Of a stretch of DNA of 54,827 bases, positions 19,646-38,804 are shown one piece after another. A program made the translations under genes and the position numbers. Below the pieces are notes generated by a model. It had not been told where the DNA came from. It did no database searches and saw only the letters and a program-made list of their open reading frames with translations. Origin of the DNA: a virus (taxonomy: Duplodnaviria; Caudoviricetes); IMG/VR virus record IMGVR_UViG_3300032282_002669, positions 1 to 54,827 of that record; one strand, written 5' to 3'. Each line of letters starts with the position of its first letter. Within the stretch, counting starts at the first letter, position 1.

Positions 19646-19649
19646 TAAA

Positions 19650-19988
19650 ATGGCACAAATTCCATTAAATACATTTAAAACAACAACATTCAATGTTACA
19701 ACATCAGACTCTACTGTGTATACTACTCCTGCTGGAGTAACAACAGTAGTTTTGTTGGCACAAGTTTCTAACATTCACGCAACTGATTCTGTAACCATTT
19801 CTGCAAATCATGTGAGAGGTAGCAATACAACTTCTATTATTAAGAACACAACAATACCAGTTAATGATGCTGCAACACTTTTAACTGGTAAATTAATTCT
19901 TCAAGCAGGTGATTCATTTACTGTTAGTGGTAGTGCAAATAGTAAGGGTCAAATGTTATTGTCTTACCTCGAAACCGCTAACGCTTAA
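19650..19988 (+). CDS. Small beta-rich virion adaptor protein
   Basis: LNTFKT...VYTTPAG.TTVVL...GKLILQAGD; resembles 45654-46028. Confidence 0.65.
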   Translation: MAQIPLNTFKTTTFNVTTSDSTVYTTPAGVTTVVLLAQVSNIHATDSVTISANHVRGSNTTSIIKNTTIPVNDAATLLTGKLILQAGDSFTVSGSANSKGQMLLSYLETANA

Positions 19989-19996
19989 TATAAAAT

Positions 19997-21982
19997 ATGT
20001 CTACTAAATCCAGATTAATCAGCGGCAGAGTACCGGTAAGTAACTCAGCCAATGTTACATCAGAACGCTATCAATACCTAGATTTAAGTTCAGCTGAACC
20101 AAATTTAGGCACAAGTAGTGTTGGTGATGTATTAACTTACGACAGTTCATATCCTGGTGGTAGAAGATGGATTCCGCAAAGCGATATTCGTGGATCAATT
20201 GGCCAAGCGGCTTATATTCAGGCTAATACGGCTTCAGCAAATACATTGTATATTTCTGGTGTAGATATTACTCAAAACAACAGAATTTCTACACTAGAAA
20301 CTGTTAACGGAGAACAAAATACTAGCATTAGTATTATTCAAGGTGTTAATGTTACTCAAAATACCAACATCACAAATGTTGATACTAAAGCACAAGCTGC
20401 ATTTGATAAAGCAAATACAGGATTAGCTTCTTCTGGTGGTTCAATCACAGGTTCATTATCTGTTTCACAAAACTTAACTGTTACTGGTAACTTAACTGTT
20501 CTTGGTAATTCAACCACATTAACAACCAATACATTAGATATTGGTGATTCATTAATCTATCTTGCTAATAATAATTTAACTTCTGATGCAGTAGATATTG
20601 GTATTATTGGTCATTACAATGATGGCGCAAATGCTCATGCTGGTATTATCAGAGATCCAAATGCCAAAGAATGGATTTTCTTCAAAGGTTATACACCAGA
20701 AGTTCAATCAAACAATCTTATAGATATTAATCATGCATCTTTTGCTAAAGCAAATGTACAAGCCAGTTACTTCAAAGGTAATGTAGTATTCTCTGATGGT
20801 ACCACTCAAACAAGTGCGGCTACCAATATTGATTCTTATGCTCGTGCAGTAAATGATTTACAAAATACTAACGTTACGGCAGTAAATACTTATGCTGCTG
20901 GTGCTTATGGTGCAGCTAACACCAATGCAACAAATATTACCATTATTCAAGGTGTTGATGTAGGCCAAAACACTAGAATGTCTATTATTGAGGGTGTTGA
21001 TGTAACACAGAATACCAACATTACCGCAGCATTTAATCAAGCAAATTCCGCAAATGTTTTAGCTCAATCTGCATTTGATAAAGCAAATACTGCATTATCA
21101 AATACCAATTTAAATGTTTCTGGAACGCTCAGAATGTTAAATCAGGGTGGTGATGAAGGTGGTGAATTATTTTTAGATAAACCAGCTACAAGCACATCTT
21201 TAGCAGCTGGTATAACAATTGACATTTTTCAAAACAAGTTAAGATTTTTTGAAACTGGTGGTAGTGTTCGTGGCGTCTTTATTGACATGGCAAATGGTGC
21301 CTCAGCAGGAGTTGGTACAGACTTATTAAATCCCGCTTCAGCACCAGATGCGGTAGCAAGAGCTACAGCCAGTGCGGCTTTTGATAAAGCCAATTCTGCT
21401 AATGTTTTAGCACAAGCTGCATTTGATAAAGCAAATACTGCTTCATCCAATACCATTATTATTCAAGGTGTAGACACTACACAGAATACTCGTATGACCG
21501 TGATTGAAGGTGTTGACCTTACTCAAAATACTAATATTACCAATGTTGATACTAAATCACAATCAGCATTTAACAAAGCAAATTCTGCAAATGTATTAGC
21601 TCAAGCCGCATTTGATTATGCAAATACAATTCTTTCTTTAGATAATAATATTGATTCTGTTGCAAGAACAACTGCAAACAACGCCTCATCAAATACTATT
21701 GTAATTCAAGGTGTAGATACTTGGCAGAATACACAGATTACTGCCGCAAGTTCTTTAGCACAAGGTGCCTTTGCAAGAGCAAACTCTGGTGCCAGAGCAA
21801 CAACAAGTAACACAGCACCTACAGGAAATACTGTTGGTGATTTATGGTTAAGTTTAACAGATGAAACATTATACATGTATTCATATGATGGTACAAGTAA
21901 CAATTGGGTAGATATTTCAGGACCTATATTGAGGTCATCTAATATTGTTGTTCAATACACCATCACAGCTAACGTAAGTTAA
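19997..21982 (+). CDS. Mosaic tail fibre protein
   Basis: IIQGVD/QNT and AQAAFDKAN modules; GHYNDG domain; GGDEGGEL motif; C-terminal SNTAPT...GDLW...NNWVDI domain. Confidence 0.75.
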   Translation: MSTKSRLISGRVPVSNSANVTSERYQYLDLSSAEPNLGTSSVGDVLTYDSSYPGGRRWIPQSDIRGSIGQAAYIQANTASANTLYISGVDITQNNRISTLETVNGEQNTSISIIQGVNVTQNTNITNVDTKAQAAFDKANTGLASSGGSITGSLSVSQNLTVTGNLTVLGNSTTLTTNTLDIGDSLIYLANNNLTSDAVDIGIIGHYNDGANAHAGIIRDPNAKEWIFFKGYTPEVQSNNLIDINHASFAKANVQASYFKGNVVFSDGTTQTSAATNIDSYARAVNDLQNTNVTAVNTYAAGAYGAANTNATNITIIQGVDVGQNTRMSIIEGVDVTQNTNITAAFNQANSANVLAQSAFDKANTALSNTNLNVSGTLRMLNQGGDEGGELFLDKPATSTSLAAGITIDIFQNKLRFFETGGSVRGVFIDMANGASAGVGTDLLNPASAPDAVARATASAAFDKANSANVLAQAAFDKANTASSNTIIIQGVDTTQNTRMTVIEGVDLTQNTNITNVDTKSQSAFNKANSANVLAQAAFDYANTILSLDNNIDSVARTTANNASSNTIVIQGVDTWQNTQITAASSLAQGAFARANSGARATTSNTAPTGNTVGDLWLSLTDETLYMYSYDGTSNNWVDISGPILRSSNIVVQYTITANVS

Positions 21983-21991
21983 GGATTAGAA

Positions 21992-23386
21992 ATGGCAATT
22001 AACGAAGGTCAAACAATACAATACACAGTAACCACGACCAATACGGCCGATGGTACAGTATTGTATTGGAAAACTACAGGCAACACCACAAACTCCGACA
22101 TACAAGGTGGTAACACAGGTTCAGTAACGATTACAAACAATCAAGCCGTGTTTAATGTGGAGGTAATTGCTGATACCACTACAGACGGAGTTAAAACTTT
22201 AGGTCTTAGTCTTTCTACAGGATCATTAAATGGTCCTACAGTAGTATCAACATCAAGTCCAATTACAGTTACAGATACTTCACGTTCACCACAATATTCT
22301 CTGTATTTTTGGGGTAGAAATTCTCCAGTAGGCATATCAGGAACAAATGATTCTGTGGATTTACCAAGATCCAGTCCAGTACAAATTGGAACTTCATCGT
22401 GGAATTTAATTTCAGTTGGTGATTATGTTGTTGCCGGCATTCAAACCAATGGAACTTTATGGACTTGGGGAGACGATCAAACAGGATCATTAGGACGACC
22501 AGATAAAATTAATAGATCCAGTCCAACACAAGTTGGTGCCTTGAGTAATTGGTCAAGTGTAGCTTCAGCTAGATACCATTGTGTGGCCGTTAAAACTGAT
22601 GGCACTTTATGGTCATGGGGATTGAGTGGAGGCGGAAGATTAGGAAATAATAGTGGCAATTATTCAAGTAGGTCTAGTCCCACACAAGTTGGATCAGGAA
22701 CAACATGGTCAAGCGTAAAAACAACAGTCTCAGCTTCTTTTGCGTTAAAGACTGATGGTACACTATGGACTTGGGGACCAAATTCTCTAGGTCAATTAGG
22801 TTTAAATTTAGGAAACATTTATAGGTCCAGTCCAGTTCAAATAGGATCACCTAGTGGATATTCTTGGACCACCATTGGAACAGGAGCATATTCCGTTGGT
22901 GGAATAACAAGTGATGGTTCATTATTTACTTGGGGTGGCGACCTTTCAAACTATGGGGTTTTGGGAGTAAATTCATCAGTCAGTAAGTCTGCACCAACAC
23001 AAGTAAATGGTTCTTGGTCAAAAATTGATTTTTGTACTAACGATACTGGTTTTGTCGGAATTAAATCTAATGGAACTTTATGGCAAACCGGATATGGGTT
23101 TTTTATTGGTAACGGAGGCATTAATGTTTCTAGTCCTGTTCAGCTTGGATCCAATTCAGATTGGGTAAATGTTTATGCAAATAAAGGTGGAGCTTTTATT
23201 ACAAAAGCCAATAACGCAGCTTATGTTTTTGGCCAAAATAATTGGGGTGGATTAGGACAAAATAATGCCATTTATCAGTTGGCTACAAACATGGTTCAAT
23301 TGGGTACAACAACTCAATGGAGAAATTTTGCCAGCACAAAAACATCCACAAACGACCAAATCGTGTTTGGTACCACACTGGACTAA
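21992..23386 (+). CDS. RCC1/BLIP-II-like beta-propeller protein with N-terminal Calx-beta/Ig-like domain
   Basis: Repeats of KTDGTLWxWG...LG...SSPxQxG (about 7 blades) after INEGQTIQYTVTTTN...VLYW. Confidence 0.85.
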   Translation: MAINEGQTIQYTVTTTNTADGTVLYWKTTGNTTNSDIQGGNTGSVTITNNQAVFNVEVIADTTTDGVKTLGLSLSTGSLNGPTVVSTSSPITVTDTSRSPQYSLYFWGRNSPVGISGTNDSVDLPRSSPVQIGTSSWNLISVGDYVVAGIQTNGTLWTWGDDQTGSLGRPDKINRSSPTQVGALSNWSSVASARYHCVAVKTDGTLWSWGLSGGGRLGNNSGNYSSRSSPTQVGSGTTWSSVKTTVSASFALKTDGTLWTWGPNSLGQLGLNLGNIYRSSPVQIGSPSGYSWTTIGTGAYSVGGITSDGSLFTWGGDLSNYGVLGVNSSVSKSAPTQVNGSWSKIDFCTNDTGFVGIKSNGTLWQTGYGFFIGNGGINVSSPVQLGSNSDWVNVYANKGGAFITKANNAAYVFGQNNWGGLGQNNAIYQLATNMVQLGTTTQWRNFASTKTSTNDQIVFGTTLD

Positions 23387-23428
23387 CAGAATAAAACCGA
23401 TACGAATTGGTCTAAAAGGAAATAAAAA

Positions 23429-23791
23429 ATGAGTCATTTTGCAAAAGTAGAAGATGGAACAGTAACACAAGTTATTGTTATTGAGCAAGATGTTTTAAAC
23501 ACAGGACATTGGGGTGATCCATCATCTTGGGTACAAACTTCATATAATACTAGAGGTGGTGTTCACACATTAGGTGGAACTCCATTGCGTAAAAACTTTG
23601 CTGGTATTGGGTACACATACGACAGAGTTCGTGATGCATTTATTCCACCAAAACCTTTTGCTTCTTGGAATTTAAATGAAGATACTTGTTTGTGGGATGC
23701 ACCAACTGAAATGCCAGTTGAAGAAGGTAAAATGTTTTATTGGGATGAACCAACAGTATCTTGGTTGGAATTTGTTCCACCGACAGAATAA
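23429..23791 (+). CDS. Conserved phage protein (MSHFAK family), possible fibre chaperone
   Basis: MSHFAKV...WVQTSYN...RKNFAGIGYTYD..RDAFIPPKPFASW.L.E.TC.W.AP; SD AAGGA. Confidence 0.7.
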   Translation: MSHFAKVEDGTVTQVIVIEQDVLNTGHWGDPSSWVQTSYNTRGGVHTLGGTPLRKNFAGIGYTYDRVRDAFIPPKPFASWNLNEDTCLWDAPTEMPVEEGKMFYWDEPTVSWLEFVPPTE

Positions 23792-23794
23792 ATA
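23787..23794 (+). promoter_or_regulatory. Late promoter variant AATAAATA
   Basis: Overlaps the stop of 23429, upstream of 23818. The same variant occurs at 29782-29789. Confidence 0.5.
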
Positions 23795-23817
23795 TAGAAT
23801 AATCTAGGACTAATTAC

Positions 23818-25347
23818 ATGGCTTTTCCACTATCACCAGCAAATAATCAAACTGCTCTAGTTAATGGCATTGTTTATCAATGGAATGCCGGACTTGGTGT
23901 TTGGAAAAGAAACGGTTCAGTTAACTCAATTGAAGTAGGACAGTTATTACTTAACTCTGCACAACAAACAACATCAAACGGATCAGGAACTTTAATTGTT
24001 TCTGGTGGTGCAGGCATAACAGGTAATGTTTATACTGGTGGAATCTTTATTACTGGTGCTGCAAACGGTATTACCTTTGCGGATGGTTCAGTACAAACTA
24101 CTGGTGCTACAGGTATAGATTCTTATGCTAGAACTACGGCTAATACAGCTTCATCTAATACTGTAGTGATTCAAGGTATAGATACAGCACAGAATACCCG
24201 TATGACTATTATTGAGGGCGTAGACACTACTCAAAATACTAATATTACCATTATTCAAGGTGTGGATGTTGGTCAAAATACTCGTATGGGTATTATTGAG
24301 GGCGTAGACACTACTCAAAATACTAATATTACCATTATTCAAGGTGTGGATGTTGGTCAAAATACTCGTATGGGTATTATTGAAGGTGTTAATACAACTC
24401 AAAACACTAATATTACAGCCGCTGATACTAAAGCACAAGCTGCTTTTAATGCCGCTAATACCAAGTTCTCATCTTCTGGTGGTACAATTACAGGTGATAC
24501 AGTAGTAACAGGAAACTTAACTGTAACTGGTACACAGTTCTATGCCAATACAGTAAACTTAACTGTTGTTGATAACATTATTACTCTAAACTCCAATGTA
24601 ACCGGCGCACCCACATTAAGTGCTGGTCTTGAAGTTAACAGAGGTTCATCTTCCAATACTAAGTTACTTTGGTCTGAAGCAAATACATCATGGGAATTTA
24701 CCAATAACGGATCATTCTATGATAAGATTGCTGGTTTAACATATGCTAATGCAGCATTTGCAGCTGCTAATACTAATGCAACCAACATTACTATACTTCA
24801 AGGTGTAGATGCAACACAGAATACCAACATTACTAATGTTGACACTAAAGCACAAGCCGCTTTCGATAAAGCAAACTCAGCCAATGTACTGGCACAGGCT
24901 GCATTTAATACTGCCAACTCTGCTGGTGCGGTAAGTATCACCGATGATACAACAAATAGTGGAACATATTATCCATTGTTATCGGTATCCGCCACAGGCA
25001 CACTCTCTACTTCAAATACATCCAGTTCTAAATTATCTTATGTACCATCAACTGGTACACTAACAACTGTAGACTTGAATACAACATCTGATATCAAGTT
25101 TAAAGAGAACATCCAAACGATTGATTCGGCATTGGAAATGATAAATAGAATAGACGGAGTTTCGTTTAACTGGAAAGAAACTGGTAAGAAATCTTATGGT
25201 GTGGTTGCTCAGCAGTTACAAGAAGTTTTACCAGAATTAGTTTCAGAAGAAGAACGTGGTTTATCTGTTTCGTACCTACCAATTATTGCAATTCTTATTG
25301 AGGCAATTAAAGAACAACAAAAACAAATAAACGATTTAAAAAAATAA
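23818..25347 (+). CDS. Tail fibre with C-terminal intramolecular chaperone (peptidase S74)
   Basis: TSDIKFKENI...GVSFNWK...GVVAQ...LPELV...SVSY...LIEAIKEQ is the S74 autocleavage domain. MAFPLSP N-terminus; QNT heptad repeats. Confidence 0.88.
   Translation: MAFPLSPANNQTALVNGIVYQWNAGLGVWKRNGSVNSIEVGQLLLNSAQQTTSNGSGTLIVSGGAGITGNVYTGGIFITGAANGITFADGSVQTTGATGIDSYARTTANTASSNTVVIQGIDTAQNTRMTIIEGVDTTQNTNITIIQGVDVGQNTRMGIIEGVDTTQNTNITIIQGVDVGQNTRMGIIEGVNTTQNTNITAADTKAQAAFNAANTKFSSSGGTITGDTVVTGNLTVTGTQFYANTVNLTVVDNIITLNSNVTGAPTLSAGLEVNRGSSSNTKLLWSEANTSWEFTNNGSFYDKIAGLTYANAAFAAANTNATNITILQGVDATQNTNITNVDTKAQAAFDKANSANVLAQAAFNTANSAGAVSITDDTTNSGTYYPLLSVSATGTLSTSNTSSSKLSYVPSTGTLTTVDLNTTSDIKFKENIQTIDSALEMINRIDGVSFNWKETGKKSYGVVAQQLQEVLPELVSEEERGLSVSYLPIIAILIEAIKEQQKQINDLKK
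24208..24375 (+). repeat. Perfect 84-bp tandem duplication (28 aa)
   Basis: 24208-24291 equals 24292-24375 (IIEGVDTTQNTNITIIQGVDVGQNTRMG). Confidence 0.9.
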
Positions 25348-25380
25348 TAATAATAAGCCGAGTACCTAAGAGGAACGAAG

Positions 25381-27123
25381 ATGGCAATCAAAATTAATAA
25401 TACTGTTGTTATAGACAACAGTAGAAATGCGACAATTAATGCAATCACAGCAAACACTATAACTGCCAACGGCACAGACCTTGGTACTGCTGTTGCTCAA
25501 GCCTACTTACTGGCCAATAATGCAAACCAAACAACTACATCTAATACTGCACCAACCAGTCCTAAAGTTGGTGATGCATGGTATGATACAATAACCGGTA
25601 TTACTTTTAGATACACCAACGATGGCACAAGTAATAACTGGGTAGATATTACAGGTCCACAGAATTCTGGTTACATTTATCAGTCATATGCAATTACTCC
25701 AAATACATCAACTGTTAGTGAAACTACTGGTAACACAGTAAGTTATACAGTCACAACCACCAATACTGCCGATAACACCGTATTATATTGGACCAATTCT
25801 GGTACAACTGTTGCATCAGACTTTAAAGATTCTGTAAGTAATGGTACGGTTACAATTGTAAACAATTCTGGAACATTTACAAGGTCAGTAATTGCGGATT
25901 TGGTGACAGAAGGTTCCGAAACGATTGTAATGAATCTTAGAACCGGTTCAAATACCGGTACAATCGTAGCCGTTGCAAGTTCTGTGTCCGTAGGTGATAC
26001 TTCACAGGATCCATATTACGCTATGTACTCTACAGGATATAATCAGACTGGTGAATTAGGCCTCAATGATAGAGGTGTTTATAGATCCAGTCCAACACAA
26101 ATAGGATCACAAAGCAATTGGAGAGTAATTGCATCAGGTGGAGCTAGTAGCTCAGGATTTAGTGCTGCAATTAAAACCAATGGAACTTTGTGGTTGTGGG
26201 GTCAAGGCAGTTATGGAAAATTGGGACAAGGTGATAACATTTCACGATCTTCACCCACACAAGTGGGAGCTTTAACATCTTGGTCGGATGTTGTTATTGA
26301 GCGAAATGCTCAAGCTTGCATGGCTATTAGAACTGATGGTACAATATGGACATGGGGAAATAATGCTTACACCGGAATACTTGGTCAGAATCAAGGTTCG
26401 CCGTTTTCTTTTTATGATAAAAACAGTCCAACACAAGTAGGAACAGACACAAGTTGGAGTAAAATTGGTGCAACAGCTGGCGTCTTTGCATCCATCAAAA
26501 CCAATGGCACTCTGTGGTTGTGGGGAAGTAATAGTTATGGAAAATTAGGCCTTGGTGATACAGATAATAGATCCAGTCCAACACAATTAGGATCAGGAAC
26601 AGATTGGGCCATCTTGCCAAAATCAGGTGGCGGGTCTTGGATGGGTGCTATTAAAACCAATGGTACTTTGTGGACATGGGGAGGAAATTGGCAGACTCAA
26701 ACAGGATCAAATAGATCCGGCAATTTTAATCCTGTTTTACCAACACAACAAACAGGATCAAATTGGTCTAAACTTGCAATTGGATCGGACCACGGACTTG
26801 CTATCAAAACTGACGGCACCTTATGGGGTTGGGGAAATAATTCAAGAAATCAATTAACAAATAGCGTAGCTGGCTATGGAAATATAACTCAGATAGGTAC
26901 TTCAACAACATGGGCAGAGGTTTCTACAAGCCAATATACAACTGTTGCATTAAAAACTGATGGCACGATATGGGGATGGGGAAGAAACGACTTTGGCCAA
27001 TTAGGGTTAAATGGTACTGTCGGTGGTTACTCAATAAGTTCTCCAAGACAAATTGGAAGTGCAACAAATTGGGGTGGAGTATCTGTTGGATCAATGACGT
27101 TACTAACAACAAATTCACAATAA
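25381..27123 (+). CDS. RCC1-like propeller protein with MAIKIN anchor, GDxW domain and intact Calx-beta/Ig-like domain
   Basis: MAIKINNTVVIDNSRN; SNTAPTSPKVGDAWYD...NNWVDI; YAITPNTSTVSE...ADLVTEGSET; about 7 RCC1 blades. Confidence 0.85.
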   Translation: MAIKINNTVVIDNSRNATINAITANTITANGTDLGTAVAQAYLLANNANQTTTSNTAPTSPKVGDAWYDTITGITFRYTNDGTSNNWVDITGPQNSGYIYQSYAITPNTSTVSETTGNTVSYTVTTTNTADNTVLYWTNSGTTVASDFKDSVSNGTVTIVNNSGTFTRSVIADLVTEGSETIVMNLRTGSNTGTIVAVASSVSVGDTSQDPYYAMYSTGYNQTGELGLNDRGVYRSSPTQIGSQSNWRVIASGGASSSGFSAAIKTNGTLWLWGQGSYGKLGQGDNISRSSPTQVGALTSWSDVVIERNAQACMAIRTDGTIWTWGNNAYTGILGQNQGSPFSFYDKNSPTQVGTDTSWSKIGATAGVFASIKTNGTLWLWGSNSYGKLGLGDTDNRSSPTQLGSGTDWAILPKSGGGSWMGAIKTNGTLWTWGGNWQTQTGSNRSGNFNPVLPTQQTGSNWSKLAIGSDHGLAIKTDGTLWGWGNNSRNQLTNSVAGYGNITQIGTSTTWAEVSTSQYTTVALKTDGTIWGWGRNDFGQLGLNGTVGGYSISSPRQIGSATNWGGVSVGSMTLLTTNSQ

Positions 27124-27137
27124 TAGGTAAAATATAA

Positions 27138-28364
27138 ATGTCTTTTCCATTATCACCAGCCAATAATCAAGTTACGCTTGAAAATGGTATATCGTATACC
27201 TATAATGCTTCAAGGAATTTTTGGTATAGAACACCCGCAACTGCGTTAGCTTCAATTACATCTAATACATTTACTGTTCTAAATTCAATCATATTTTCAG
27301 ATGGTACTACACAAACATCTGCTGCTAGTCCAAATGATTCATATGCTAGAACTACTGCTAATACTGCAACCAATAATATTACTGTTATTCAAGGTGTAGA
27401 TGTAGGTCAAAACACTAGAATGACTGTAATAGAAGGTGTAGATGTAACACAGAACACCAACATTACTATAGCAAATAATGCAGCTCAAGCTGCGTTTGCA
27501 CAAGCCAATGCAACTGCTGGTGGATTAACTACCGCCAATAGTAGAATCACGGTTGCTGAAGGTGTCGATACTACCCAGAACACTAATATTACCATAGCAA
27601 CCAATGCTGCAACAGCCGCATTTGCTCAAGCTAATGCAACTGCTGGCGGATTAACTACCGCTAATAGTAGAATCACGGTTGCTGAAGGTGTAGACACTAC
27701 TCAAAATACTAATATTACCAATGCGACTAATGCTGCAACGGCAGCTTTCACTAAAGCAAATACTGCAATCACCACATCAGGTGGTTCAATCACCGGTTCA
27801 TTAAATGTATCACAAGATTTGGCCGTTACAGGAAACTTAACTGTATTAGGAGCCACCACTTCCATTAACACAACTTCTTTTGTTGTTAGTGATTCTTTAA
27901 TCGTGATGGGTACAGGAAATTACACCTCAGATTTATTGGATATTGGATTAACGGCTCACTACAACGATGGCACTAACGCACATGCCGGTATTGTTCGTGA
28001 CGCTACAACCAAAGAATGGTATGTGTTCAAAGGTTACACACCAGAACATTCTGCAAATAACAACATTGATATTAATCATGCATCATTTGCTAAAGCAAAC
28101 GTTAACGCAAATTATTTTAAAGGTAACGTAATATTTCCAGACGGCACAGTTCAAGCTACAGCCGTAAATTTAAGAATGACTGGAAGTAGTACTCCACCAT
28201 CCACTCCAACAGTCGGTGATTTGTGGTATGATACAGATATCGATGTGTTGCTTCGTTACACATATGACGGATCATCAAACAATTGGGTCGATATTACTGG
28301 ACCAACAATTGGTAGGTCGTCATATATTCGACCAACATACTTAATATCTGCTAACGTAGCATAA
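27138..28364 (+). CDS. Mosaic tail fibre protein
   Basis: MSFPLSPANNQ N-terminus; 42-aa heptad-multiple repeats; HYNDG domain; C-terminal PTVGDLWYD...NNWVDI. Confidence 0.75.
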   Translation: MSFPLSPANNQVTLENGISYTYNASRNFWYRTPATALASITSNTFTVLNSIIFSDGTTQTSAASPNDSYARTTANTATNNITVIQGVDVGQNTRMTVIEGVDVTQNTNITIANNAAQAAFAQANATAGGLTTANSRITVAEGVDTTQNTNITIATNAATAAFAQANATAGGLTTANSRITVAEGVDTTQNTNITNATNAATAAFTKANTAITTSGGSITGSLNVSQDLAVTGNLTVLGATTSINTTSFVVSDSLIVMGTGNYTSDLLDIGLTAHYNDGTNAHAGIVRDATTKEWYVFKGYTPEHSANNNIDINHASFAKANVNANYFKGNVIFPDGTVQATAVNLRMTGSSTPPSTPTVGDLWYDTDIDVLLRYTYDGSSNNWVDITGPTIGRSSYIRPTYLISANVA

Positions 28365-28373
28365 GGACTAAAA

Positions 28374-29786
28374 ATGCCATTAAATGAATCTAGTTCAAAC
28401 ACTTCGATACAATATACAGTAACAACGACCAGAGTAACTGATGGTACAGTATTATATTGGAAAACTACAGGTAGTATTGCTAACTCTGATATTGTAGGAG
28501 GTAATACTGGTACAATTACAATTAATAATAATCGTGCAGTATTCAATGTTACTATTATTGCAGACAACGTGACTGAAGGTAATGAAACATTAGGTATTGC
28601 AATTTCTACTGGTTCACAGAGTGGACCAACAGTAGTATCAACGGCCAATCCAATTACAGTTAATGACACATCATTAGATCCATATTACGCTATGTACGCT
28701 ACAGGATATAATGTGAATGGAGAATTAGGTCTCAATGATAGAACCAATAGGTCCAGTCCAACACAAATAGGATCAGCAACAAATTGGAGATTAATTGCAA
28801 CTGGTGGATATGGCAATAGTGGTGGTTCAGGAGTTAGTGCTGGAATTAAAACCGATGGTACTTTATGGTTATGGGGATTTGGTCAATATGGCCGATTAGG
28901 CCAAAACGATACAATTTCACGTTCTTCACCTACACAAGTAGGAGCTCTAACATCTTGGTCTGATGTTGCCATTAGTGGTAATGCAAGCCATACAATTGCT
29001 CTCAGAACCGATGGTACATTATGGTTATGGGGAAAAGGTAATTATGGACAATTAGGTCAAGGTAATACAAGTCATCAATCCAGTCCAGTAGCAGTAGCAG
29101 GAACAAATTGGAGTAAAATTGGTGTAAGTGCGGGCCTGTCTGCAGCAATTAAAACGGACGGAACATTGTGGACCTGGGGAAATAATAGTTATGGAAAATT
29201 AGGACTTGGAGATAATACTAACAGAAATAGCCCGGTACAAGTAGGAACAGGAACAGATTGGTCTTATTTGAATAAATCAGGTGGTGGTGTTGCTATGGGT
29301 GCTATCAAAACCAATGGTACTTTATGGACGTGGGGAGGAAATTGGGAAACTCAAACAGGATCAAATAGAGATACTAGCGGAAATCCTTTCTATGGAGTAA
29401 GAAGTCCTGTACAACAAACAGGATCAAATTGGCTTAATCTTTATATGGGGTATGGTCACGGACTTGCAATCAAAACTGATGGTACGTTGTGGGGTTGGGG
29501 AAATAATTCAAGAAACCAATTAACAAATAGCGTAGCTGGTTATGGAAATATAACTCAAATAGGCAATGAAACAACGTGGGCTGCTATAGGAACTAATAGA
29601 TATGAAACTATTGGATTAAAAACTAATGGCACCATATGGGGTTGGGGTAAAAATTCTAGTGGACAATTAGGACTAAGTGAAGGTGATTATCCTTACATAA
29701 GTTCTCCAAGACAAATTGGAAGTGCAACAAATTGGGGTGCAGTAGCCACTGGATCAATGACTTTACTAACCACAAATTCACAATAA
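28374..29786 (+). CDS. RCC1-like propeller protein with N-terminal Calx-beta/Ig-like domain
   Basis: N-domain closely resembles that of 21992; propeller closely resembles that of 25381. Confidence 0.85.
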   Translation: MPLNESSSNTSIQYTVTTTRVTDGTVLYWKTTGSIANSDIVGGNTGTITINNNRAVFNVTIIADNVTEGNETLGIAISTGSQSGPTVVSTANPITVNDTSLDPYYAMYATGYNVNGELGLNDRTNRSSPTQIGSATNWRLIATGGYGNSGGSGVSAGIKTDGTLWLWGFGQYGRLGQNDTISRSSPTQVGALTSWSDVAISGNASHTIALRTDGTLWLWGKGNYGQLGQGNTSHQSSPVAVAGTNWSKIGVSAGLSAAIKTDGTLWTWGNNSYGKLGLGDNTNRNSPVQVGTGTDWSYLNKSGGGVAMGAIKTNGTLWTWGGNWETQTGSNRDTSGNPFYGVRSPVQQTGSNWLNLYMGYGHGLAIKTDGTLWGWGNNSRNQLTNSVAGYGNITQIGNETTWAAIGTNRYETIGLKTNGTIWGWGKNSSGQLGLSEGDYPYISSPRQIGSATNWGAVATGSMTLLTTNSQ

Positions 29787-29812
29787 ATAAAGAATAAATT
29801 TAGGAATATTAA

Positions 29813-31282
29813 ATGTCATTTCCGATATCACCATCAAATAACCAAATAGCATTAGTAAATGGTATTGAGTATTACTACCTTACCACTAAAGGTGCATGGT
29901 ATCGCTATGGCGATGGAAGTGCCAATGTAATTACATCTAATACATTTCAAGTATTAAGTTCAATCATATTTTCTGATGGTACTTCACAAACAACTGCAGC
30001 AAATCCTACCGATGCATATGCTAGAACTACAGCCAATACTGCAACAAGTAATATTGTAATTCTACAAGGTGTCGATACTACTCAGAACACCAACATTACA
30101 ATTGCTAATAATGCGGCTCAGGCTGCGTTTGCACAAGCTAATGCAACTGCCGGTGGTTTGACCACAGCTAACACTAACATAACAGTAATACAAGGTGTGG
30201 ATGTAGGTCAAAATACTCGTATGACAATCATTGAGGGTGTTGATACAACTCAAAACACCAATATTACTATAGCAACTAATGCTGCAACGGCAGCTTTTGC
30301 TCAAGCCAATGCTACTGCCGGTGGATTAACTACGGCAAACACCAGATTAACTGTTGTTGAAGGTGTTGATACTACTCAGAACACCAACATTACAATTGCC
30401 AACAATGCAGCTCAAGCTGCGTTTGCACAAGCCAATGCAACTGCTGGTGGATTAATAACTGCTAACGCCAGAATTACCATATCTGAAGGTGTAGATGTAA
30501 CACAGAACACCAATATTACAAACACAACTACTTTAGCACAAGCTGCTTTTGATAAAGCCAATTCTTCTTATACATTGGCCAATACTGCAAATAGTAAATC
30601 AACTACTAGTTCTACTTCATTTACATCTGTTGTAGATACATTTACAGGTAATGGAAGTCAAACACAGTTTACTCTGTCTGTTGTACCTGATACAGAGAAC
30701 AGTACATTTGTTTATTTAAATGGTGTGTATCAAAACAAATCCACATACTCGGTAGTTGGTGCCAATGTTGTATTCACCGATACAGCAACTGCAAATGATA
30801 CTATTGAAGTAACTACTGTTGCTGGTAGTGTTATGAATGTAAGTCCTGCTGGTTACTCAACAAGAATCTATCAAGGTAATGGATCAACCACAGCATTTAC
30901 AATTAGTGCAGGTCAAACTGCCAACACCGTTATGGTGTTCAACAACGGTATCTGCCAATTCCCCGTTACGGACTATACAGTAAGCGGAACTACACTAACA
31001 TATATTGTAGCACCACAGTCCGATGAAACGGTACAGATTCGGGAACTACCAATAAATACATTAGTTGCAATCACACAACCATATTTAAGAAGATATACTG
31101 CCAATGGAGTTCAAACAACATTTACAGTAACATCAGGTCAATCAGCCAACTCAATGTTTGTATATGAGAATGGTGTATGTCAAATGCCTATTAATGATTA
31201 CACAGTAAGTGGAACAACATTGACCTTTACTACAGCACCTAGTTCAGATAAAGTAATTCAAATTAGAGAAATGCCAGTTTAA
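29813..31282 (+). CDS. Fibre/hub protein with three C-terminal FTGNG-type repeats
   Basis: MSFPISP N-terminus; QNT/AQAAF shaft; three domains of pattern xNGxxTxFT...V..NG..Q...Y.V.G. Confidence 0.7.
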   Translation: MSFPISPSNNQIALVNGIEYYYLTTKGAWYRYGDGSANVITSNTFQVLSSIIFSDGTSQTTAANPTDAYARTTANTATSNIVILQGVDTTQNTNITIANNAAQAAFAQANATAGGLTTANTNITVIQGVDVGQNTRMTIIEGVDTTQNTNITIATNAATAAFAQANATAGGLTTANTRLTVVEGVDTTQNTNITIANNAAQAAFAQANATAGGLITANARITISEGVDVTQNTNITNTTTLAQAAFDKANSSYTLANTANSKSTTSSTSFTSVVDTFTGNGSQTQFTLSVVPDTENSTFVYLNGVYQNKSTYSVVGANVVFTDTATANDTIEVTTVAGSVMNVSPAGYSTRIYQGNGSTTAFTISAGQTANTVMVFNNGICQFPVTDYTVSGTTLTYIVAPQSDETVQIRELPINTLVAITQPYLRRYTANGVQTTFTVTSGQSANSMFVYENGVCQMPINDYTVSGTTLTFTTAPSSDKVIQIREMPV

Positions 31283-31291
31283 GGATAAAGA

Positions 31292-33001
31292 ATGTCATTT
31301 ACAAAAATATCAAGTACAAATATTGCCAATGGTGCCATTACTTTTGCACAAACAGCTGCTGGTGCTTTTACATTAATACCTACAATTACTAATGTTCAGA
31401 TTGCTGATGCATCATATAATGTTCTAGATGATACGGCAGCAAATACTGGTGGTGGTTATGTTGTTATTACTGGATCAAATTTTGGATCTAATTCACAAGT
31501 AATTATTGGTACAACTAATGCTACCAGTACAACATATGTAAATTCAACCACTATTCGTGCTCAAGTACCTGCTTTATCCGCTGCAACATATTCTCTTTAT
31601 GTTGTAGATAATACTACTGGCGCTACTGCAATTAAAGTAAATGGTTTAACATACAGTTCATTTCCAGCATGGTCAACAGGATCAACATTAACCAATCAAC
31701 AATCAGGTACTTCTTTTGGAATTAATGTAAGTGCATCATCAGATTCTAATATTACATATGCAAATACAACAGCATTACCTACTGGCACTACATTAGCTGC
31801 TAATGGATATTTTTCAGGTACAGTTACGGTGGGTTCACCAACAACATACTCATTTGATGTTAAAGCCACAGACGTTGAAAATCAAGATGCAACAAGAACA
31901 TTTAGTTTAACAGTAATATTGCAAGAAATAAAATTATGGTCTTGGGGTTTAGGTAACGTTGGTCAATTAGGAATTAATACATCACCATCTTATAGATCTA
32001 GTCCGGTGCAAATAGGTGCGGGCACAAATTGGTATGGTTTAGGTTCTTCGAGCCTGAATCACTTTGCTATAAAAGATAATGGTACGTTATGGAGTTGGGG
32101 TGGCAACCAAAATGGAGCAAATGGCCTAAATGATATAGTTTATAGATCCAGTCCAACACAGGTTGGTTCATTAACAAATTGGTCAAAAATTAGTGCAGGT
32201 GATGGTGCTGTTGTAGCTATTAAAACTGACGGTACTATGTGGTCATGGGGATGGAATGCATTTGGCCAGTTAGGATTAAATAATGGTTCAGTAAATAAAT
32301 CCAGTCCAACACAAATAGGATCAGGAACAAATTGGTCTTTTGCTGAAATTTCTGGCCAAAGTGGACTGTATGGAGTTGCAATCAAAACTGACGGCACACT
32401 ATGGAGTTGGGGATTAAATAACAACGGACAATTGGGTGTAAACAATCGTACCAGCAACGAGTCCCCGGTACAAGTAGGTGCAGGCACAAATTGGAGTAAA
32501 GTTACTATAGCTATGAAAGCTACATTAGCAATTAAAACTGATGGTACATTATGGTCTTGGGGTGATGGTAGTAATGGATGTTTAGCTGATAATAATTTCA
32601 ATGCCTATAGGTCTAGTCCGGTTCAAGTTGGTGCAGGTACAACTTGGTCATTAATTTCTGCTGGAGCTCATGTATTGGCTATCAAAACTGATGGCACACT
32701 GTGGTCTTGGGGACAAAATGCTAGCGGACAGTTAGGACAAAACGATGTTAATTCTTTAGCATCACCCAGACAAATAGGTACAGATACCAGTTGGAGTAAA
32801 ATTTCTGCAGGTAGTTCAGTTTCGGGTGTAATTAAAACTAATGGTACTTTATGGATTTGGGGAGGTGGTACCAACGGACAATTAGGACTAAATGACTCTG
32901 TGGGTCGTTCAAGTCCAGTACAAGTTGGTACAGGAACAAATTGGTCACAAATAATGTCAACAAAAGGTTCTACTTCTATGTTAGCATTAACTTTAAATTA
33001 A
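31292..33001 (+). CDS. IPT/TIG + Ig-like + RCC1 propeller protein
   Basis: PTITNV...GGYVVITGSNF (IPT/TIG-like); LPTGTTLAANG..SGT...F.V.ATD (He_PIG/cadherin-like); about 7 RCC1 blades. Confidence 0.85.
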   Translation: MSFTKISSTNIANGAITFAQTAAGAFTLIPTITNVQIADASYNVLDDTAANTGGGYVVITGSNFGSNSQVIIGTTNATSTTYVNSTTIRAQVPALSAATYSLYVVDNTTGATAIKVNGLTYSSFPAWSTGSTLTNQQSGTSFGINVSASSDSNITYANTTALPTGTTLAANGYFSGTVTVGSPTTYSFDVKATDVENQDATRTFSLTVILQEIKLWSWGLGNVGQLGINTSPSYRSSPVQIGAGTNWYGLGSSSLNHFAIKDNGTLWSWGGNQNGANGLNDIVYRSSPTQVGSLTNWSKISAGDGAVVAIKTDGTMWSWGWNAFGQLGLNNGSVNKSSPTQIGSGTNWSFAEISGQSGLYGVAIKTDGTLWSWGLNNNGQLGVNNRTSNESPVQVGAGTNWSKVTIAMKATLAIKTDGTLWSWGDGSNGCLADNNFNAYRSSPVQVGAGTTWSLISAGAHVLAIKTDGTLWSWGQNASGQLGQNDVNSLASPRQIGTDTSWSKISAGSSVSGVIKTNGTLWIWGGGTNGQLGLNDSVGRSSPVQVGTGTNWSQIMSTKGSTSMLALTLN

Positions 33002-33004
33002 TCC

Positions 33005-33142
33005 ATGCCAACTAAATTAATTGGAGATAGCTTTGCTCCAGGATCCATTACAGTTAACCAAATTACCGTTGGTGCTTTAAATTCCAAAATATTTTCTGTA
33101 CAAGTAACAAATTCATCTTACCTAATAAATAAAACAATATGA
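33005..33142 (+). pseudogene. 5' relic (45 codons) of an additional IPT-RCC1 paralog
   Basis: Translates as MPTKLIGDSFAPGSITVNQITVGALNSKIFSVQVTNSSYLINKTI*. It aligns with the 33139 N-terminus (MTTQITANNITAGTITSTQLLPGSLAPRISSISICDASY) up to SSY. Not in the supplied ORF track. Confidence 0.7.
33124..33131 (+). promoter_or_regulatory. Late promoter variant AATAAATA, 7 nt before ATG
   Basis: Directly upstream of 33139; no SD. Confidence 0.55.
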
Positions 33143-34836
33143 CAACACAAATTACCGCAAATAATATTACAGCAGGAACAATTACATCAACACAATTGCT
33201 TCCTGGTTCTTTAGCACCAAGAATATCTTCTATTTCTATTTGTGATGCATCTTATAATATTCTGGATGACACCGCAGCCAATACTACCGGCGGTTACATT
33301 CAAATTTCTGGAGCCAATTTTGGATCCAATTCACAAATTGTTATTGGAACAAACAATGCAACTTCCGTAACATTTGTAAACACTTCAACAATTAGGGCTC
33401 AGGTAGGTGTTGCAGCAGCCGCAACTTATCCTGTGTATGTTATTGATACTGATACTGGTGCTACCGCAATTAAAGTAAATGGATTATCCACTAGTTCATT
33501 CCCAGCATGGAGTACCGGTGCAACATTAACTGGCCAAAACTCTGGCAATTTTTTTGGCATCAATCTTAGTGTTTCATCTGATTCTAATATTACATATGCA
33601 AATACAACTGCATTACCAGCCGGTACCACATTAGCAGCCAATGGATATTTTTCAGGTACAGTTTCTATTGGTTCTACAACAACATACAATTTTACTGTTG
33701 ATGCTAAAGATGCTGAAAATCAAAATGCAGTTAGGTCATTTAGTATGACAGTAACAGTAATACCAGCAACAAAATTGTGGTCTTGGGGAAATAACAATCA
33801 AGGTCAATTAGGACTTAATAATTATACCTATAAATCTAGTCCAACACAAATAGGAACAGGTGTTGCTTGGGCAAATACATCTATTGGTCAACAACATAGT
33901 GCCGCTACCAAAACCGATGGAACTTTATGGACGTGGGGAAGAGGCGCTGAAGGCCAATTAGGTCTTGGTACCACAATAGAATATTCCTCGCCTAAACAGG
34001 TTGGCACAGGAACAACATGGAGTAGTGTAGTCGTTAACAATACTGGCACCGGATTTACAGCGGCAATCAAAACTGATGGCACTTTATGGTTGTGGGGAAG
34101 AAATAATTATGGAAGATTGGGCACAACTTATGGACACAAATCCAGTCCAGCACAAGTTGGAGCATTAACAACATGGAGCCAAGTTTCTCTTGGCCATACT
34201 CATACTGCTGCTGTTAAAACTGATGGTACTTTGTGGACATGGGGCCTTGACAGTTATGGAGCATTAGGTCTTAGTGTTTTATCACCTTACATAAACAGTC
34301 CTACACAAGTTGGCACAGGAACAAATTGGAAAAGTGTTTCACTTGGTCCAAGTTTTATGGGAGCCATAAAAACTGATGGTACTTTATGGTTATGTGGATA
34401 CGGTGTATATGGCAGATTAGGTTTAGGTGACAGTACTAATAAGTCTAGTCCAGTACAATTAGGTACTGACACGAATTGGAGTATGATTAGTTGTAGATAT
34501 TATGCTACACTTGCAACTAAAACCGATGGTACATTGTGGGCGTGGGGTAATGGTTCTCGAGGACAATTAGGACTCAATGATGGTGCAAACAGAAATAGCC
34601 CGGTACAAGTTGGCACAGGAACAACATGGAATAAAGTAAGTTCTGGCGGTCATAGTCTGGCAATTAAAACCGATGGAACTTTATGGGCGTGGGGTCGCCA
34701 AAGACTCGGAGCATTAGGATTAAACAATTCAGGAAATTATGTTTATGTATCAAGTCCTATACAAGTCGGTACAGAAACAAATTGGAGTACTATTTCTGCT
34801 GCTCTATATACTTCTATTGCCATCACTACAAACTAA
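33139..34836 (+). CDS. IPT/TIG + Ig-like + RCC1 propeller protein
   Basis: Same architecture as 31292; shared SYNxLDDTAANT and SSFPAWSTG motifs. Confidence 0.85.
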   Translation: MTTQITANNITAGTITSTQLLPGSLAPRISSISICDASYNILDDTAANTTGGYIQISGANFGSNSQIVIGTNNATSVTFVNTSTIRAQVGVAAAATYPVYVIDTDTGATAIKVNGLSTSSFPAWSTGATLTGQNSGNFFGINLSVSSDSNITYANTTALPAGTTLAANGYFSGTVSIGSTTTYNFTVDAKDAENQNAVRSFSMTVTVIPATKLWSWGNNNQGQLGLNNYTYKSSPTQIGTGVAWANTSIGQQHSAATKTDGTLWTWGRGAEGQLGLGTTIEYSSPKQVGTGTTWSSVVVNNTGTGFTAAIKTDGTLWLWGRNNYGRLGTTYGHKSSPAQVGALTTWSQVSLGHTHTAAVKTDGTLWTWGLDSYGALGLSVLSPYINSPTQVGTGTNWKSVSLGPSFMGAIKTDGTLWLCGYGVYGRLGLGDSTNKSSPVQLGTDTNWSMISCRYYATLATKTDGTLWAWGNGSRGQLGLNDGANRNSPVQVGTGTTWNKVSSGGHSLAIKTDGTLWAWGRQRLGALGLNNSGNYVYVSSPIQVGTETNWSTISAALYTSIAITTN

Positions 34837-36627
34837 ATGACTCAATACATTAAGTCTTATAATATTGCAAACAACTCACTCAGCTCAGTTGTTTTTGGTT
34901 CTGATGTTGCAAATACAATTAATACAGCTGCTATAGCATCTGCTGTGGCTATTTCTGCCAACGTGGCTGCACAAGCAGTTAATACATTTGTTACATTACA
35001 AACTCAATCAATTGCTAATACACCACCAACAATTAATGTAATATCAATTACAGATTCATCTTATAATGTTCTAGATGACACAGCAGCCAATACTGGTGGT
35101 GCATACTTACAAATTACAGGATCTAATTTTCAATCTGGTGCTATTGTTATGGTAGGTTCTAGTAACACCGCATTGACCACCACATTAGTAAACTCAAGTA
35201 CATTGAGAGCAGAGATTCCAGCCATTGCATCAGGAACTTATCCTGTATATGTGGTGAACACTAATGGTGGCACAGGTATTCGAGTTAATGGATTAACAAC
35301 AAGTTCATTTCCAGCATGGAGTACCGGTACTACATTGACAGGACAAATAAGTGGCACCGCATTTGGAATTAATATTGCAGCATCATCAGACTCTAATATT
35401 ACATATTCTAATACCACAGCATTACCAGCAGGTACAACATTATTAGCTAATGGATATTTTTACGGAACATCTAGTCCGGCTTCTACAACAACTTATACAT
35501 TCACCGCCAAAGCAACTGACGTAGAAAATCAAGATGCATCGAGAACATTTAGTGTAACCGTAACAGTACTACCCATAGGATATTTGTATAGGTGGGGAAA
35601 TAATACTGGCGTTACGCCAATATCTTCTTCGCCAGTACAAGTTGGCAGTGATAATACATGGTTAACACTAGCAACGAATAACTATCATGGTTTAGGTATT
35701 AAACAAAATGGAACTTTATGGGCTTGGGGGGATAATTCACGAGCACAGTTTGGAGTAAATAATAAAGTTAGTTCAAGTTCACCAGTGCAAGTTGGTGCAT
35801 TAACAAATTGGTTAACCATCGCTTCAGGATATTTTAGTTCTTTTGCAACAAAAACCGATGGTACATTATGGTCCTGGGGGAATGCAACTTATGGAGAATT
35901 AGGTATTGGTGTTAATGGAGCAAATAGGTCTAGTCCAGTACAAATTGGTGCATTGACTAGTTGGAGTAATGTAGTAGCTGGACAATATTATTTTGCAGCA
36001 TTAAAAACTGATGGAACAATATGGGGTTGTGGATATATTAGTTATCCAAATGGATTTGGTGGTAGCGTTCCTTCACAATTAGGATCAGATACCAATTGGA
36101 GTAAAATTTATGCAGGAAGAAGAAGTTTTTCTGCAATTAAAACAACAGGAATATTATTAACTCAAGGTTATAATTATCATGGAGAATTAGGCCAAAATAC
36201 GACCGTTGACAATTATACTATGACAGCTGTTGGTTCAACAAGTTGGGATTCAGTTTCTATGGGCTCAAACCATGCTTTAGGTATTAAAACTGATGGCACA
36301 TTATGGAGTTGGGGTTACAATCGCAACGGACAATTAGGATTAAATAGTGCTGCTGGTTCCGATAGATCCAGTCCAGTGCAAATTGGTACAAATAACAATT
36401 GGCAATTAGTAAATGTTAATGGTTATAATAGTATATTTTCGTCAGATGGCATTGGTCATGCAATTAAAACTGATGGCACGTTATGGGGATGGGGACAAAA
36501 TAATCAAGGACAATTGGGATTACCGGATTTAATTTCTAGGTCCAGTCCGACTCAAGTTGGTACAGGAACATCTTGGAAAAATATAAAATCAGGTAGAACT
36601 GGCGTTATTGCTATTTCATCATCTTAA
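34837..36627 (+). CDS. IPT/TIG + Ig-like + RCC1 propeller protein
   Basis: Same architecture; TAAATG coupling to the upstream gene. Confidence 0.85.
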   Translation: MTQYIKSYNIANNSLSSVVFGSDVANTINTAAIASAVAISANVAAQAVNTFVTLQTQSIANTPPTINVISITDSSYNVLDDTAANTGGAYLQITGSNFQSGAIVMVGSSNTALTTTLVNSSTLRAEIPAIASGTYPVYVVNTNGGTGIRVNGLTTSSFPAWSTGTTLTGQISGTAFGINIAASSDSNITYSNTTALPAGTTLLANGYFYGTSSPASTTTYTFTAKATDVENQDASRTFSVTVTVLPIGYLYRWGNNTGVTPISSSPVQVGSDNTWLTLATNNYHGLGIKQNGTLWAWGDNSRAQFGVNNKVSSSSPVQVGALTNWLTIASGYFSSFATKTDGTLWSWGNATYGELGIGVNGANRSSPVQIGALTSWSNVVAGQYYFAALKTDGTIWGCGYISYPNGFGGSVPSQLGSDTNWSKIYAGRRSFSAIKTTGILLTQGYNYHGELGQNTTVDNYTMTAVGSTSWDSVSMGSNHALGIKTDGTLWSWGYNRNGQLGLNSAAGSDRSSPVQIGTNNNWQLVNVNGYNSIFSSDGIGHAIKTDGTLWGWGQNNQGQLGLPDLISRSSPTQVGTGTSWKNIKSGRTGVIAISSS

Positions 36628-36632
36628 TCAAT

Positions 36633-36640
36633 AATAAATA
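36633..36640 (+). promoter_or_regulatory. Late promoter variant AATAAATA, 7 nt before ATG
   Basis: Directly upstream of 36648; no SD. Confidence 0.55.
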
Positions 36641-36647
36641 AACCACT

Positions 36648-38745: not shown

Positions 38746-38804
38746 CAAGTTAGTTATACAACACCTATATAATATTGTGAATTAATTATTTGAAAGGTTT
38801 TACC

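Follow-up and report, generated by a model that had tools for sequence, protein, structure and literature searches.

A conserved gene junction that appears to divide one Ig-like adaptor domain between stalk and head proteins in the fibre region of an uncultured T4-like phage

Why would two fibre gene pairs of the same virus each be interrupted, at the same residue, by a stop codon that preserves the reading frame? The question is raised by IMG/VR virus record IMGVR_UViG_3300032282_002669, a stretch of 54,827 bases (hereafter the window; estimated completeness, 32%) in which each of two putative fibre stalk genes is followed directly by the gene of a head protein (pairs 1 and 2; Table 1). At the second of the two junctions, positions 28330-28388 read ...CCAACATACTTAATATCTGCTAACGTAGCA TAA GGA CTA AAA ATG CCATTAAATGAA..., and the 470-residue head encoded by the open reading frame (ORF) at 28374-29786 has the N-terminus MPLNESSSNTSIQYTVTTT; that of the pair-1 head (21992-23386) is MAINEGQTIQYTVTTT. 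Each head has an RCC1 beta-propeller behind an N-terminal domain of approximately 100 residues with no Pfam match at default thresholds. The pair-2 head exceeded the gathering cut-offs of both RCC1 (PF00415; E 4.6e-42, 142.8 bits against 21.7) and WD40_RLD (PF25390; E 2.9e-84, 283.9 bits against 150), and by these matches it is classed as an RCC1 or RCC1-like propeller. A preliminary description of the window had claimed that the second junction repeats the first, with the cut at an identical residue, an insert of 15 nt and common junction DNA, even though the two propellers differ. All of this was confirmed: the 27-base pattern GCTAACGTANNNTAAGGAYTARAAATG (GCTAACGTAnnnTAAGGAyTArAAATG) had exactly two matches in the window (21968-21994 and 28350-28376), whereas 100 shuffles gave not one and none were expected by chance; both junctions are in frame; and the propellers are identical at 151 of 355 residues (43%). 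We propose that these pairs reflect an old gene fission within an adaptor domain, following which the terminal strand of the stalk (strand A, the plug) probably docks into the remainder of the domain at the start of the head (the socket), with two plug and socket classes and with heads that can be swapped behind the joint.

The junction was surveyed among relatives in IMG/VR, first at nine further junctions and then at more loci, to a total of 36, of which 24 are distinct. The cut and the 12-nt stop-plus-spacer, TAAGGA[T/C/A]TA[A/G][A/G]A, preceded the ATG in all 36. Over nine distinct junctions, two of the 12 positions of the spacer varied compared with nine of 10 third-codon positions just upstream, and the second residue of the head was P, A or S in each of the 24 distinct junctions. 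At the protein level, 83 of 87 homologues of the head N-terminal domain in the protein database have M[PA][LIV][NG]E as their exact start; in the four remaining proteins (P0042 and P0088-P0090), which are distant, the domain is uncut and occupies an internal position. Correspondingly, 49 of 50 stalk homologues, recognized by matches to the last 74 residues, end in Y-[LS]-I-[ST]-A-N-x-x, the exception (P0139) ending earlier, at ITGPI. Residues Y401, I403, A405 and N406 were invariant in the 50 stalk sequences, and the last eight residues form the most conserved part of the tail. Hence the position of the break and the terminal motif Y-x-I-x-A-N, the two features on which the preliminary description had staked its interpretation of homologues, both held among them. 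That the stop codons are errors of sequencing or assembly, or that the genes are decaying pseudogenes, has the bare presence of an in-frame stop in its favour and nothing more, and is scarcely credible in view of the 24 distinct junction sequences that many assemblies supplied, among them a contig of an independent sequencing run (X2 record 14) that bridges the junction with its cassette intact, of the purifying selection on the flanking coding sequence and the spacer, and of the same protein ends in 83 heads and 49 stalks. When longer proteins were sought, 20 matches were returned (824-2350 residues, at most 50% identity), all of them tandem-domain giants; a fused form of the split-type adaptor was not found among them, which is weak evidence given that the search was word-based.

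A stop codon followed in frame, at a distance fixed in 36 of 36 junctions, by a start codon might also denote programmed readthrough of the TAA, such that a fused stalk-head protein with a five-residue insert would be made beside the two separate products; a chain read through in this manner is indeed predicted to fold with the insert looped out (see below). The preliminary description had cautioned that TAAGGA-N6-ATG also occurs at 31280 and that the in-frame spacing is, taken by itself, no evidence of readthrough. This caution was well placed. The arrangement was found five times in the window (14721, 21980, 28362, 31280 and 44099), unrelated gene starts included, and hence it appears to be the usual ribosome-binding layout of the phage, from which frame and length would both follow. 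RNA folding predicted no structure at either junction (z 0.28 and 1.31), Rfam had no match within 19000-32000, and no tRNA gene was found in the window, which covers only about a third of the genome. In addition, the downstream gene retains its own Shine-Dalgarno sequence, its ATG and a second residue suited to removal of the initiator methionine, and TAA followed by G is a context of efficient termination in bacteria. Readthrough is consequently regarded as unlikely, to the point of being very improbable. The occurrence at 31280-31294 separates a 489-residue ORF (29813-31282) from a 569-residue TIG/He_PIG/RCC1 ORF (31292-33001), with ...VIQIREMPV followed by MSFTKISSTNI..., and represents a second kind of stalk-head junction with the same cassette; it is retained in a relative (L023:6916) as ...VVVQIRELSI followed by MPFTQITTSNL....

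The place of the cut was made apparent by a third gene of the window, an uncut paralogue (Table 1) that reads continuously across the equivalent point as ...NNWVDITGPQNSGYIYQSYAITPNTSTVSETTGNTVSYTVTTT.... When split pairs 1 and 2 were aligned with it, they were found to have exactly five extra columns, stop-G-L-K/E-M, corresponding to the 15-nt cassette TAAGGAyTArAAATG (stop, Shine-Dalgarno, spacer and ATG), and this is precisely what the uncut paralogue is without. The region of the paralogue from Q-S-Y-A-I-T-P-N onward proved to be a widespread repeat, matched by 2322 representative proteins (E <= 0.001), many with 5-36 copies. Within the best 150 proteins, 545 of 869 domain matches begin no more than one residue from the T-Y that opens the plug, and the Y of this pair is 88% conserved. 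The consensus of the uncut domain family reads (P)TYSITPSTTSVNEGSSVTFTVTTTNV.NGTTLYWT, with the break falling between its columns 16 and 17, and the residues of the plug agree with its first strand, TYSITPS. Some heads (e.g., P0016) possess a second, uncut copy of the domain (...SISANVASLSESNTVLFTV...) in which a plug-like strand is joined directly to the NE core. Based on these alignments and on the models described next, the cut lies inside a domain, an adaptor of Calx-beta/Ig-like (immunoglobulin-like) type, at the turn that links its strands A and A', and the head gene encodes an incomplete Ig-like fold that begins 3' of the strand A with which its uncut relatives open. One copy of the adaptor-type beta-sandwich domain was also recognized outside the fibre cluster, in a 459-residue ORF at 46031-47410; it matched the region of the uncut paralogue with E 6e-9, and a Pfam scan of it gave no match.

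Residues 51-220 of the uncut paralogue were modelled with AlphaFold2 on an alignment of 21 rows (mean predicted local distance difference test score, pLDDT, 84.5; predicted template-modelling score 0.63). The model has a four-strand knob and a low-confidence linker (44-49), followed by the strands SYAITP (52-57; block pLDDT 90), TVS (61-63) and TVSYTVTTT (69-77), of which the first two are A and A', and the break point falls in the turn after SYAITP. With Foldseek, its best solved matches were Calx-beta domains (2dpk, E 1.5e-4; 3ead_A, template-modelling (TM) score 0.57 by target). Superposition by VIA-align on the first Calx-beta domain of CALX (CBD1; 3ead_B) aligned 101 of 114 residues at a root-mean-square deviation of 3.3 (Z 9.2; model 50-160, chain 441-554), and 3gin_B also gave Z 9.2; values of 8-10 are only moderately above the background quoted for the tool. 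The modelled adaptor accordingly superposes on the seven-strand beta-sandwich of CBD1, and since intimin D00-D0 scored as well (Z 10.0), it is the general fold alone that is established. With the Pfam Calx-beta family (PF03160), the adaptor of the window remained below threshold (16.3 bits against a cut-off of 27; E 0.01), and the relative P0042 was above it (28.4 bits). A sequence-profile search of the PDB with query A5 found nothing significant, and one with the single domain P0160 found a CD22 Ig domain at E 0.003 only. An Atlas model of the head alone resembled viral beta-sandwich domains with TM scores of 0.78-0.86, which is taken as a lead only. Finally, junction 2 was modelled as though read through, with the TAA entered as X in an 11-row alignment, as a single-chain proxy and not as a complex (pLDDT 80.6). 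In this model TYLISA forms a strand (53-58), A-X-G-L-K forms a low-confidence loop (pLDDT below 50), and the same sandwich follows; it superposed on the same residues of CBD1 as did the uncut model (3ead_B, Z 8.4, model 51-167, chain 441-554; 3gin_B, Z 8.5).

Two classes of stalk tail were distinguished, a T-class of the form ..[VI]QYTI[TA][AS]N.. and an L-class of the form ..PTY[LQ][IV][ST]AN... Among the 24 distinct junctions, T-class tails adjoin heads whose adaptor residues 17-18 (pair-1 numbering) are N-T in 14 of 14 cases, and L-class tails adjoin heads whose residues there are [RK]-[VI] in 10 of 10. These socket columns are the sole two columns of the adaptor to separate the plug classes (24/24). 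Linkage between plug and socket is broken because the head N-terminal haplotypes MPLNEGQT, MPVNESNT and MAVNESNT, which lie between the two in the DNA, are present in both classes while the flanking sites still match in all 24. On a tree of the remaining adaptor sequence (23 rows, the two socket columns dropped, and L092, which is cut after 46 residues, left out), tail class changed 7 times (bootstrap range 6-7), close to the mean of 7.7 after shuffling, and hence it is unlinked to the remainder of the adaptor. The 83 database heads divide into 42 with N[TA] and 41 with [RK][VI], with no intermediates, and both classes include both types of head. Each of the four contigs that have two split pairs (the window, L033, L034, and L024 with L056) carries one pair of each class. 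At the level of sequence, the cross-specificity of YTITANVS and YLISANVA, which the preliminary description had raised, is answered by their falling in two classes, each with its own socket residues.

The contacts that might underlie this code were sought in the uncut domains by mutual information with average product correction, using 558 non-identical copies (effective number 534) and a stricter set of 188. An antiparallel ladder between strands A and B was apparent, its pairs ranking 8 (14,26), 15 (8,33), 25 (14,29) and 36 (8,35) of 4095, and (12,31) also belonging to it. With the stricter set, (8,33) had a value of 0.185 and (7,34) a value of 0.107, compared with a 99th percentile of 0.102. 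Columns 7-8 of the plug are V-Q in the T-class and P-T in the L-class, and columns 34-35 are the socket. These plug and socket columns are therefore suggested to be neighbours, because the residues that co-vary across the gene boundary are those that co-evolve within one uncut chain. The two plug and socket classes and this contact analysis are new here. A knob motif, TAP..P.VGD.WY...Y.Y.NDGTSNNWVDI, is found towards the C-terminal end of fibre proteins on contigs of other phages (L025-L032, e.g., L028:4001-4126), where it precedes other short tails (...VVGYSLVFGG or ...ISPFLLMGA) and not the plug; these may be other docking tails.

The cassette at the cut consists of a TAA stop that overlaps the Shine-Dalgarno sequence AAGGA, of a spacer of 6 nt and of the ATG; the stalk ends with strand A as its plug, and the head begins with the rest of the domain as its socket, succeeded by a propeller or a glycine-rich head. 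From these observations, the joint is proposed to form as follows. The two genes may be translated as a coupled pair, since no RNA structure and no promoter- or terminator-like site was predicted at the junctions; sigma-70-like promoter and terminator scans found nothing there, and promoter-like sites were fewer than in shuffles. The initiator methionine of the head would be removed, P, A and S as second residues being suited to this by the general rule for methionine aminopeptidase, and its loss would restore the canonical spacing of the strands. The plug would then take the place of the missing edge strand by non-covalent docking against strand B of the socket. Each stalk chain is envisaged to bear a single head because the uncut paralogue carries one head per chain, and the stalks are probably trimeric because a paralogue of theirs, the 509-residue fibre at 23818-25347, matches tail-fibre PHROGs and ends in a Peptidase_S74 intramolecular chaperone domain. 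The N-terminus and repeats of the pair-2 stalk are approximately 40% identical to this fibre over 328 residues; the 408-residue stalk itself had no Pfam or PHROG match. With the chaperone end of the 509-residue fibre, the plug end of the split stalks and DUF4183-like repeats, one stalk family has three alternative distal ends. The two classes would probably keep two fibre types of one virion from cross-assembling, and the conserved adaptor may double as a recombination point for the exchange of heads.

A two-chain prediction with stalk residues 340-408 and head residues 1-108, for which custom alignments were supplied, gave a score of 0.35 (runs of 0.41, 0.32 and 0.35) compared with 0.01 for the best of three controls; the runs had at least 72% of contacts in common and a partner pLDDT of at least 65. 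The mark for such scores was reached by 58 of 80 solved complexes and two of 110 mismatched pairs, and those reaching it at 0.60 or under were seven of these 80 complexes and both of the passing mismatches. Donation of the strand by the stalk is thus backed weakly by this prediction and indirectly by the co-variation, the domain consensus and the models.

A serious rival accepts the split as real and holds that the heads attach in another manner, without strand A, or that the truncated adaptor is stable alone, in which case the tail of the stalk would have another role and the co-variation would stem from linkage or from contact with the knob. The distance between plug and socket is only about 75 nt; linkage of plug class extends over the whole C-terminal knob; the head modelled by itself in the Atlas retains its likeness to the same sandwich domains; the complex score is weak; and there is precedent, in that the gp38 adhesin binds gp37 via an N-terminal attachment domain by electrostatic interactions, with no strand sharing (PMC12032242). 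This alternative is nonetheless considered unlikely, if by no means negligible, since the haplotypes between plug and socket occur in both classes with the flanking sites matched 24/24, the last eight stalk residues are the most conserved of the tail and agree with the canonical first strand, and the co-varying sites are predicted contacts in uncut domains. Several further points weigh against docking of the plug as strand A. The independent-pairs test was underpowered and yielded one pair on well-supported branches and seven on unsupported ones; the four two-class contigs are related genomes and hence not independent; and plug class is fully linked to the entire C-terminal stalk knob of approximately 60 residues, such that the socket residues might touch the knob instead of strand A. 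The pairing of strands A and B is drawn from mutual information and from analogy with Calx-beta/Ig folds, the trimeric stalk and methionine removal from general knowledge, and the read-through model is a single-chain proxy for the joint. The complex score of 0.35, moreover, lies in the range that the tool calls 'more often wrong than right unless the guess was likely beforehand'.

The preliminary description had also taken the recurrence of the split as an argument against a random nonsense mutation or sequencing error. This part stood, with the cut present at 36 of 36 junctions; the recurrence itself turned out not to be independent. On a tree of 121 adaptor domains, based on the 96 columns downstream of the break and hence short, with many forks unresolved, a single branch with a Shimodaira-Hasegawa-like approximate likelihood ratio test (SH-aLRT) support of 99 sets apart all of the 85 split adaptors, indicating a single change of state, and another branch (SH-aLRT 94) sets apart the six uncut stalk-linked adaptors. 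Two split pairs in one genome thus reflect paralogy from one ancient gene fission and not two independent events, and since the domain is uncut as a rule among thousands of relatives, the fission is read as the derived event. The heads have followed another course. The pair-2 adaptor is identical to that of pair 1 at 62 of 91 residues and to that of the uncut paralogue at 41 of 92, whereas the pair-2 propeller shares 265 of 369 residues (72%) with that of the uncut paralogue and only the above-mentioned 43% with that of pair 1; the pair-2 head is accordingly a mosaic. Behind the same adaptor, 83 relatives have either an RCC1 propeller (59) or a Gly_rich_2 head (PF21722; 24), and an uncut-type adaptor (L068) carries a propeller that is 70% identical to the pair-2 head. 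Because of this mosaic, and because propeller and Gly_rich_2 heads stand behind one adaptor, the adaptor is read as a conserved handle behind which heads are exchanged by recombination. The DNA identity between two modules of one genome peaks over the spacer and adaptor (70-93%) and is lower on both sides; in L033 it dips at the socket codons.

Table 1. Positions of the two stalk-head pairs, their junctions and the uncut paralogue in the window
Feature	Position	Strand	Basis or remark
Fibre stalk gene, pair 1, T-class, 661 residues	19997-21982	+	ends QYTITANVS; plug YTITANVS at 21956-21979
Junction 1: stop, Shine-Dalgarno and spacer, TAAGGATTAGAA	21980-21991	+	pattern match
Head gene, pair 1, 464 residues: adaptor and RCC1 propeller	21992-23386	+	socket N17-T18 at 22040-22045
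Uncut paralogue, 580 residues: short stalk, knob, intact adaptor, RCC1 propeller	25381-27123	+	break-equivalent point between 25710 and 25711
Fibre stalk gene, pair 2, L-class, 408 residues	27138-28364	+	ORF ending PTYLISANVA
Plug, pair 2, last eight codons YLISANVA (putative strand A of the adaptor)	28338-28361	+	conservation, domain consensus, read-through model
Junction 2: stop codon overlapping Shine-Dalgarno, plus spacer, TAAGGACTAAAA	28362-28373	+	12 nt; stop at 28362-28364, then 9-nt spacer
Adaptor (socket) domain of pair-2 head, predicted Calx-beta/Ig-like sandwich without strand A	28374-28685	+	homologue starts, models
Socket residues R20-V21 (L-class)	28431-28436	+	domain columns 34-35, predicted end of strand B
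RCC1-type beta-propeller head, pair 2	28686-29786	+	Pfam RCC1, WD40_RLD

All large ORFs of the window are on the + strand. PHROGs identified a baseplate wedge subunit at 1096-2463 and a tail sheath stabiliser at 49112-50098, and the wedge protein has no more than about 30% identity to its counterparts in T4-like cyanophages and in other, distant T4-like phages; given these matches and this low identity, the window is assigned to the part of the genome that encodes baseplate and fibres in a distant T4-like myovirus that is uncultured. Related sequence is present in contigs of freshwater metagenome runs. Megablast of 19997-29786 against cultured phages gave no match, tblastn of the junction region gave a weak match to Synechococcus phage S-B68 only, and a locus search with the whole head returned 18 loci with the propeller alone in common, the junction region being present in none of the 18. 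RCC1-type propellers are encoded in eight separate ORFs (starting at 21992, 25381, 28374, 31292, 33139, 34837, 36648 and 51399), an unusually large set of propeller heads for 55 kb of fibre and baseplate genes. A He_PIG Ig domain precedes each of the four propellers within 31292-38450, and an IPT/TIG domain is also present in three of these ORFs (31292, 34837 and 36648). Directly 3' of the wedge gene, a 2114-residue ORF (2473-8817) matches DUF4815 (E 1.5e-65); a 687-residue ORF (17582-19645) has an N-terminal Mtd_N (major tropism determinant N-terminal) domain; and a 591-residue ORF among the fibre genes (38790-40565), for which TTG is the listed start, encodes a sulfotransferase domain (PF13469, E 2e-19). 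The motif CTATATAAT occurs approximately 20-30 nt 5' of three gene starts (16422, 17562 and 38765), and no copy lies between positions 17582 and 38765. The motif might be a late-promoter-like element on either side of a single long fibre operon; its count of 3 against 1.3 expected is not significant.

The manner in which interchangeable, receptor-binding heads are joined to fibres decides the host range of tailed phages and how fast it evolves. Here, a single small domain is apparently spread over two proteins, cut at one invariant turn in many uncultured phages of freshwater type, and the sequences lead to the prediction that two residues of the head and the last ten of the stalk set the choice of partner. 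Were this to hold, it would explain how several fibre types are borne by one virion without mis-assembly, and it would offer a compact, orthogonal, non-covalent docking pair for the engineering of phage host range or for protein assembly. More tentatively, and with somewhat less confidence than doubt, the two classes could be a natural pair of orthogonal split-domain connectors, with a C-terminal plug of 8-10 residues that completes the Calx-beta/Ig-like socket of a separately made head, a two-residue code (NT or RV) at the end of strand B that chooses the fibre, and any head swappable by recombination. If so, pilus donor-strand complementation would have a counterpart in the virion, its strand topology being the opposite one, and a part for the re-targeting of phages would be available ready-made.

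A literature search covering titles and the openings of abstracts found no paper that describes this stalk-head split, the sharing of a strand within tail fibres, or myovirus fibres with RCC1 heads. The closest system is the gp37/gp38 fibre of T2/T6/S16-type phages. The gp38 adhesin is attached to the gp37 stalk through an N-terminal attachment domain by electrostatic interactions; there too, in a T4-like phage, the head is the product of a separate gene directly 3' of the distal stalk gene, and it combines a conserved N-terminal attachment module with a variable distal domain (glycine-rich in some of the relatives here) and modular exchange of heads (PMC12032242). Unlike that electrostatic attachment domain, the joint here is apparently one beta-sandwich domain spread over two chains. 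The heads of the present system also differ in being RCC1 propellers or Gly_rich_2 domains, in having two matched plug and socket classes and in probably numbering one per stalk chain; in PHROGs they match RCC1 families only and the two stalks have no match, so that no sequence homology to gp37 or gp38 was seen. With respect to Calx-beta domains (NCX1/CALX CBD1, PF03160), the adaptor has by model comparison the same fold, as noted above for 3ead_B; in sequence, the domain of the window scores below the Pfam cut-off.

The closest mechanism is the donor-strand complementation of pili. In chaperone-usher pili (Fim, Pap), a missing C-terminal G strand is supplied by the N-terminal extension of the partner, and type V pili also assemble by strand exchange. 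No chaperone or usher families were found among the ORFs of the window that were scanned, and the fibre setting involves no polymerisation. As in those pili, an Ig-like fold without one edge strand would be completed by another polypeptide to give a non-covalent joint with built-in specificity. In contrast to pili, it is the N-terminal strand A that is missing in the phage adaptor, and it is the C-terminal tail of the partner that carries it.

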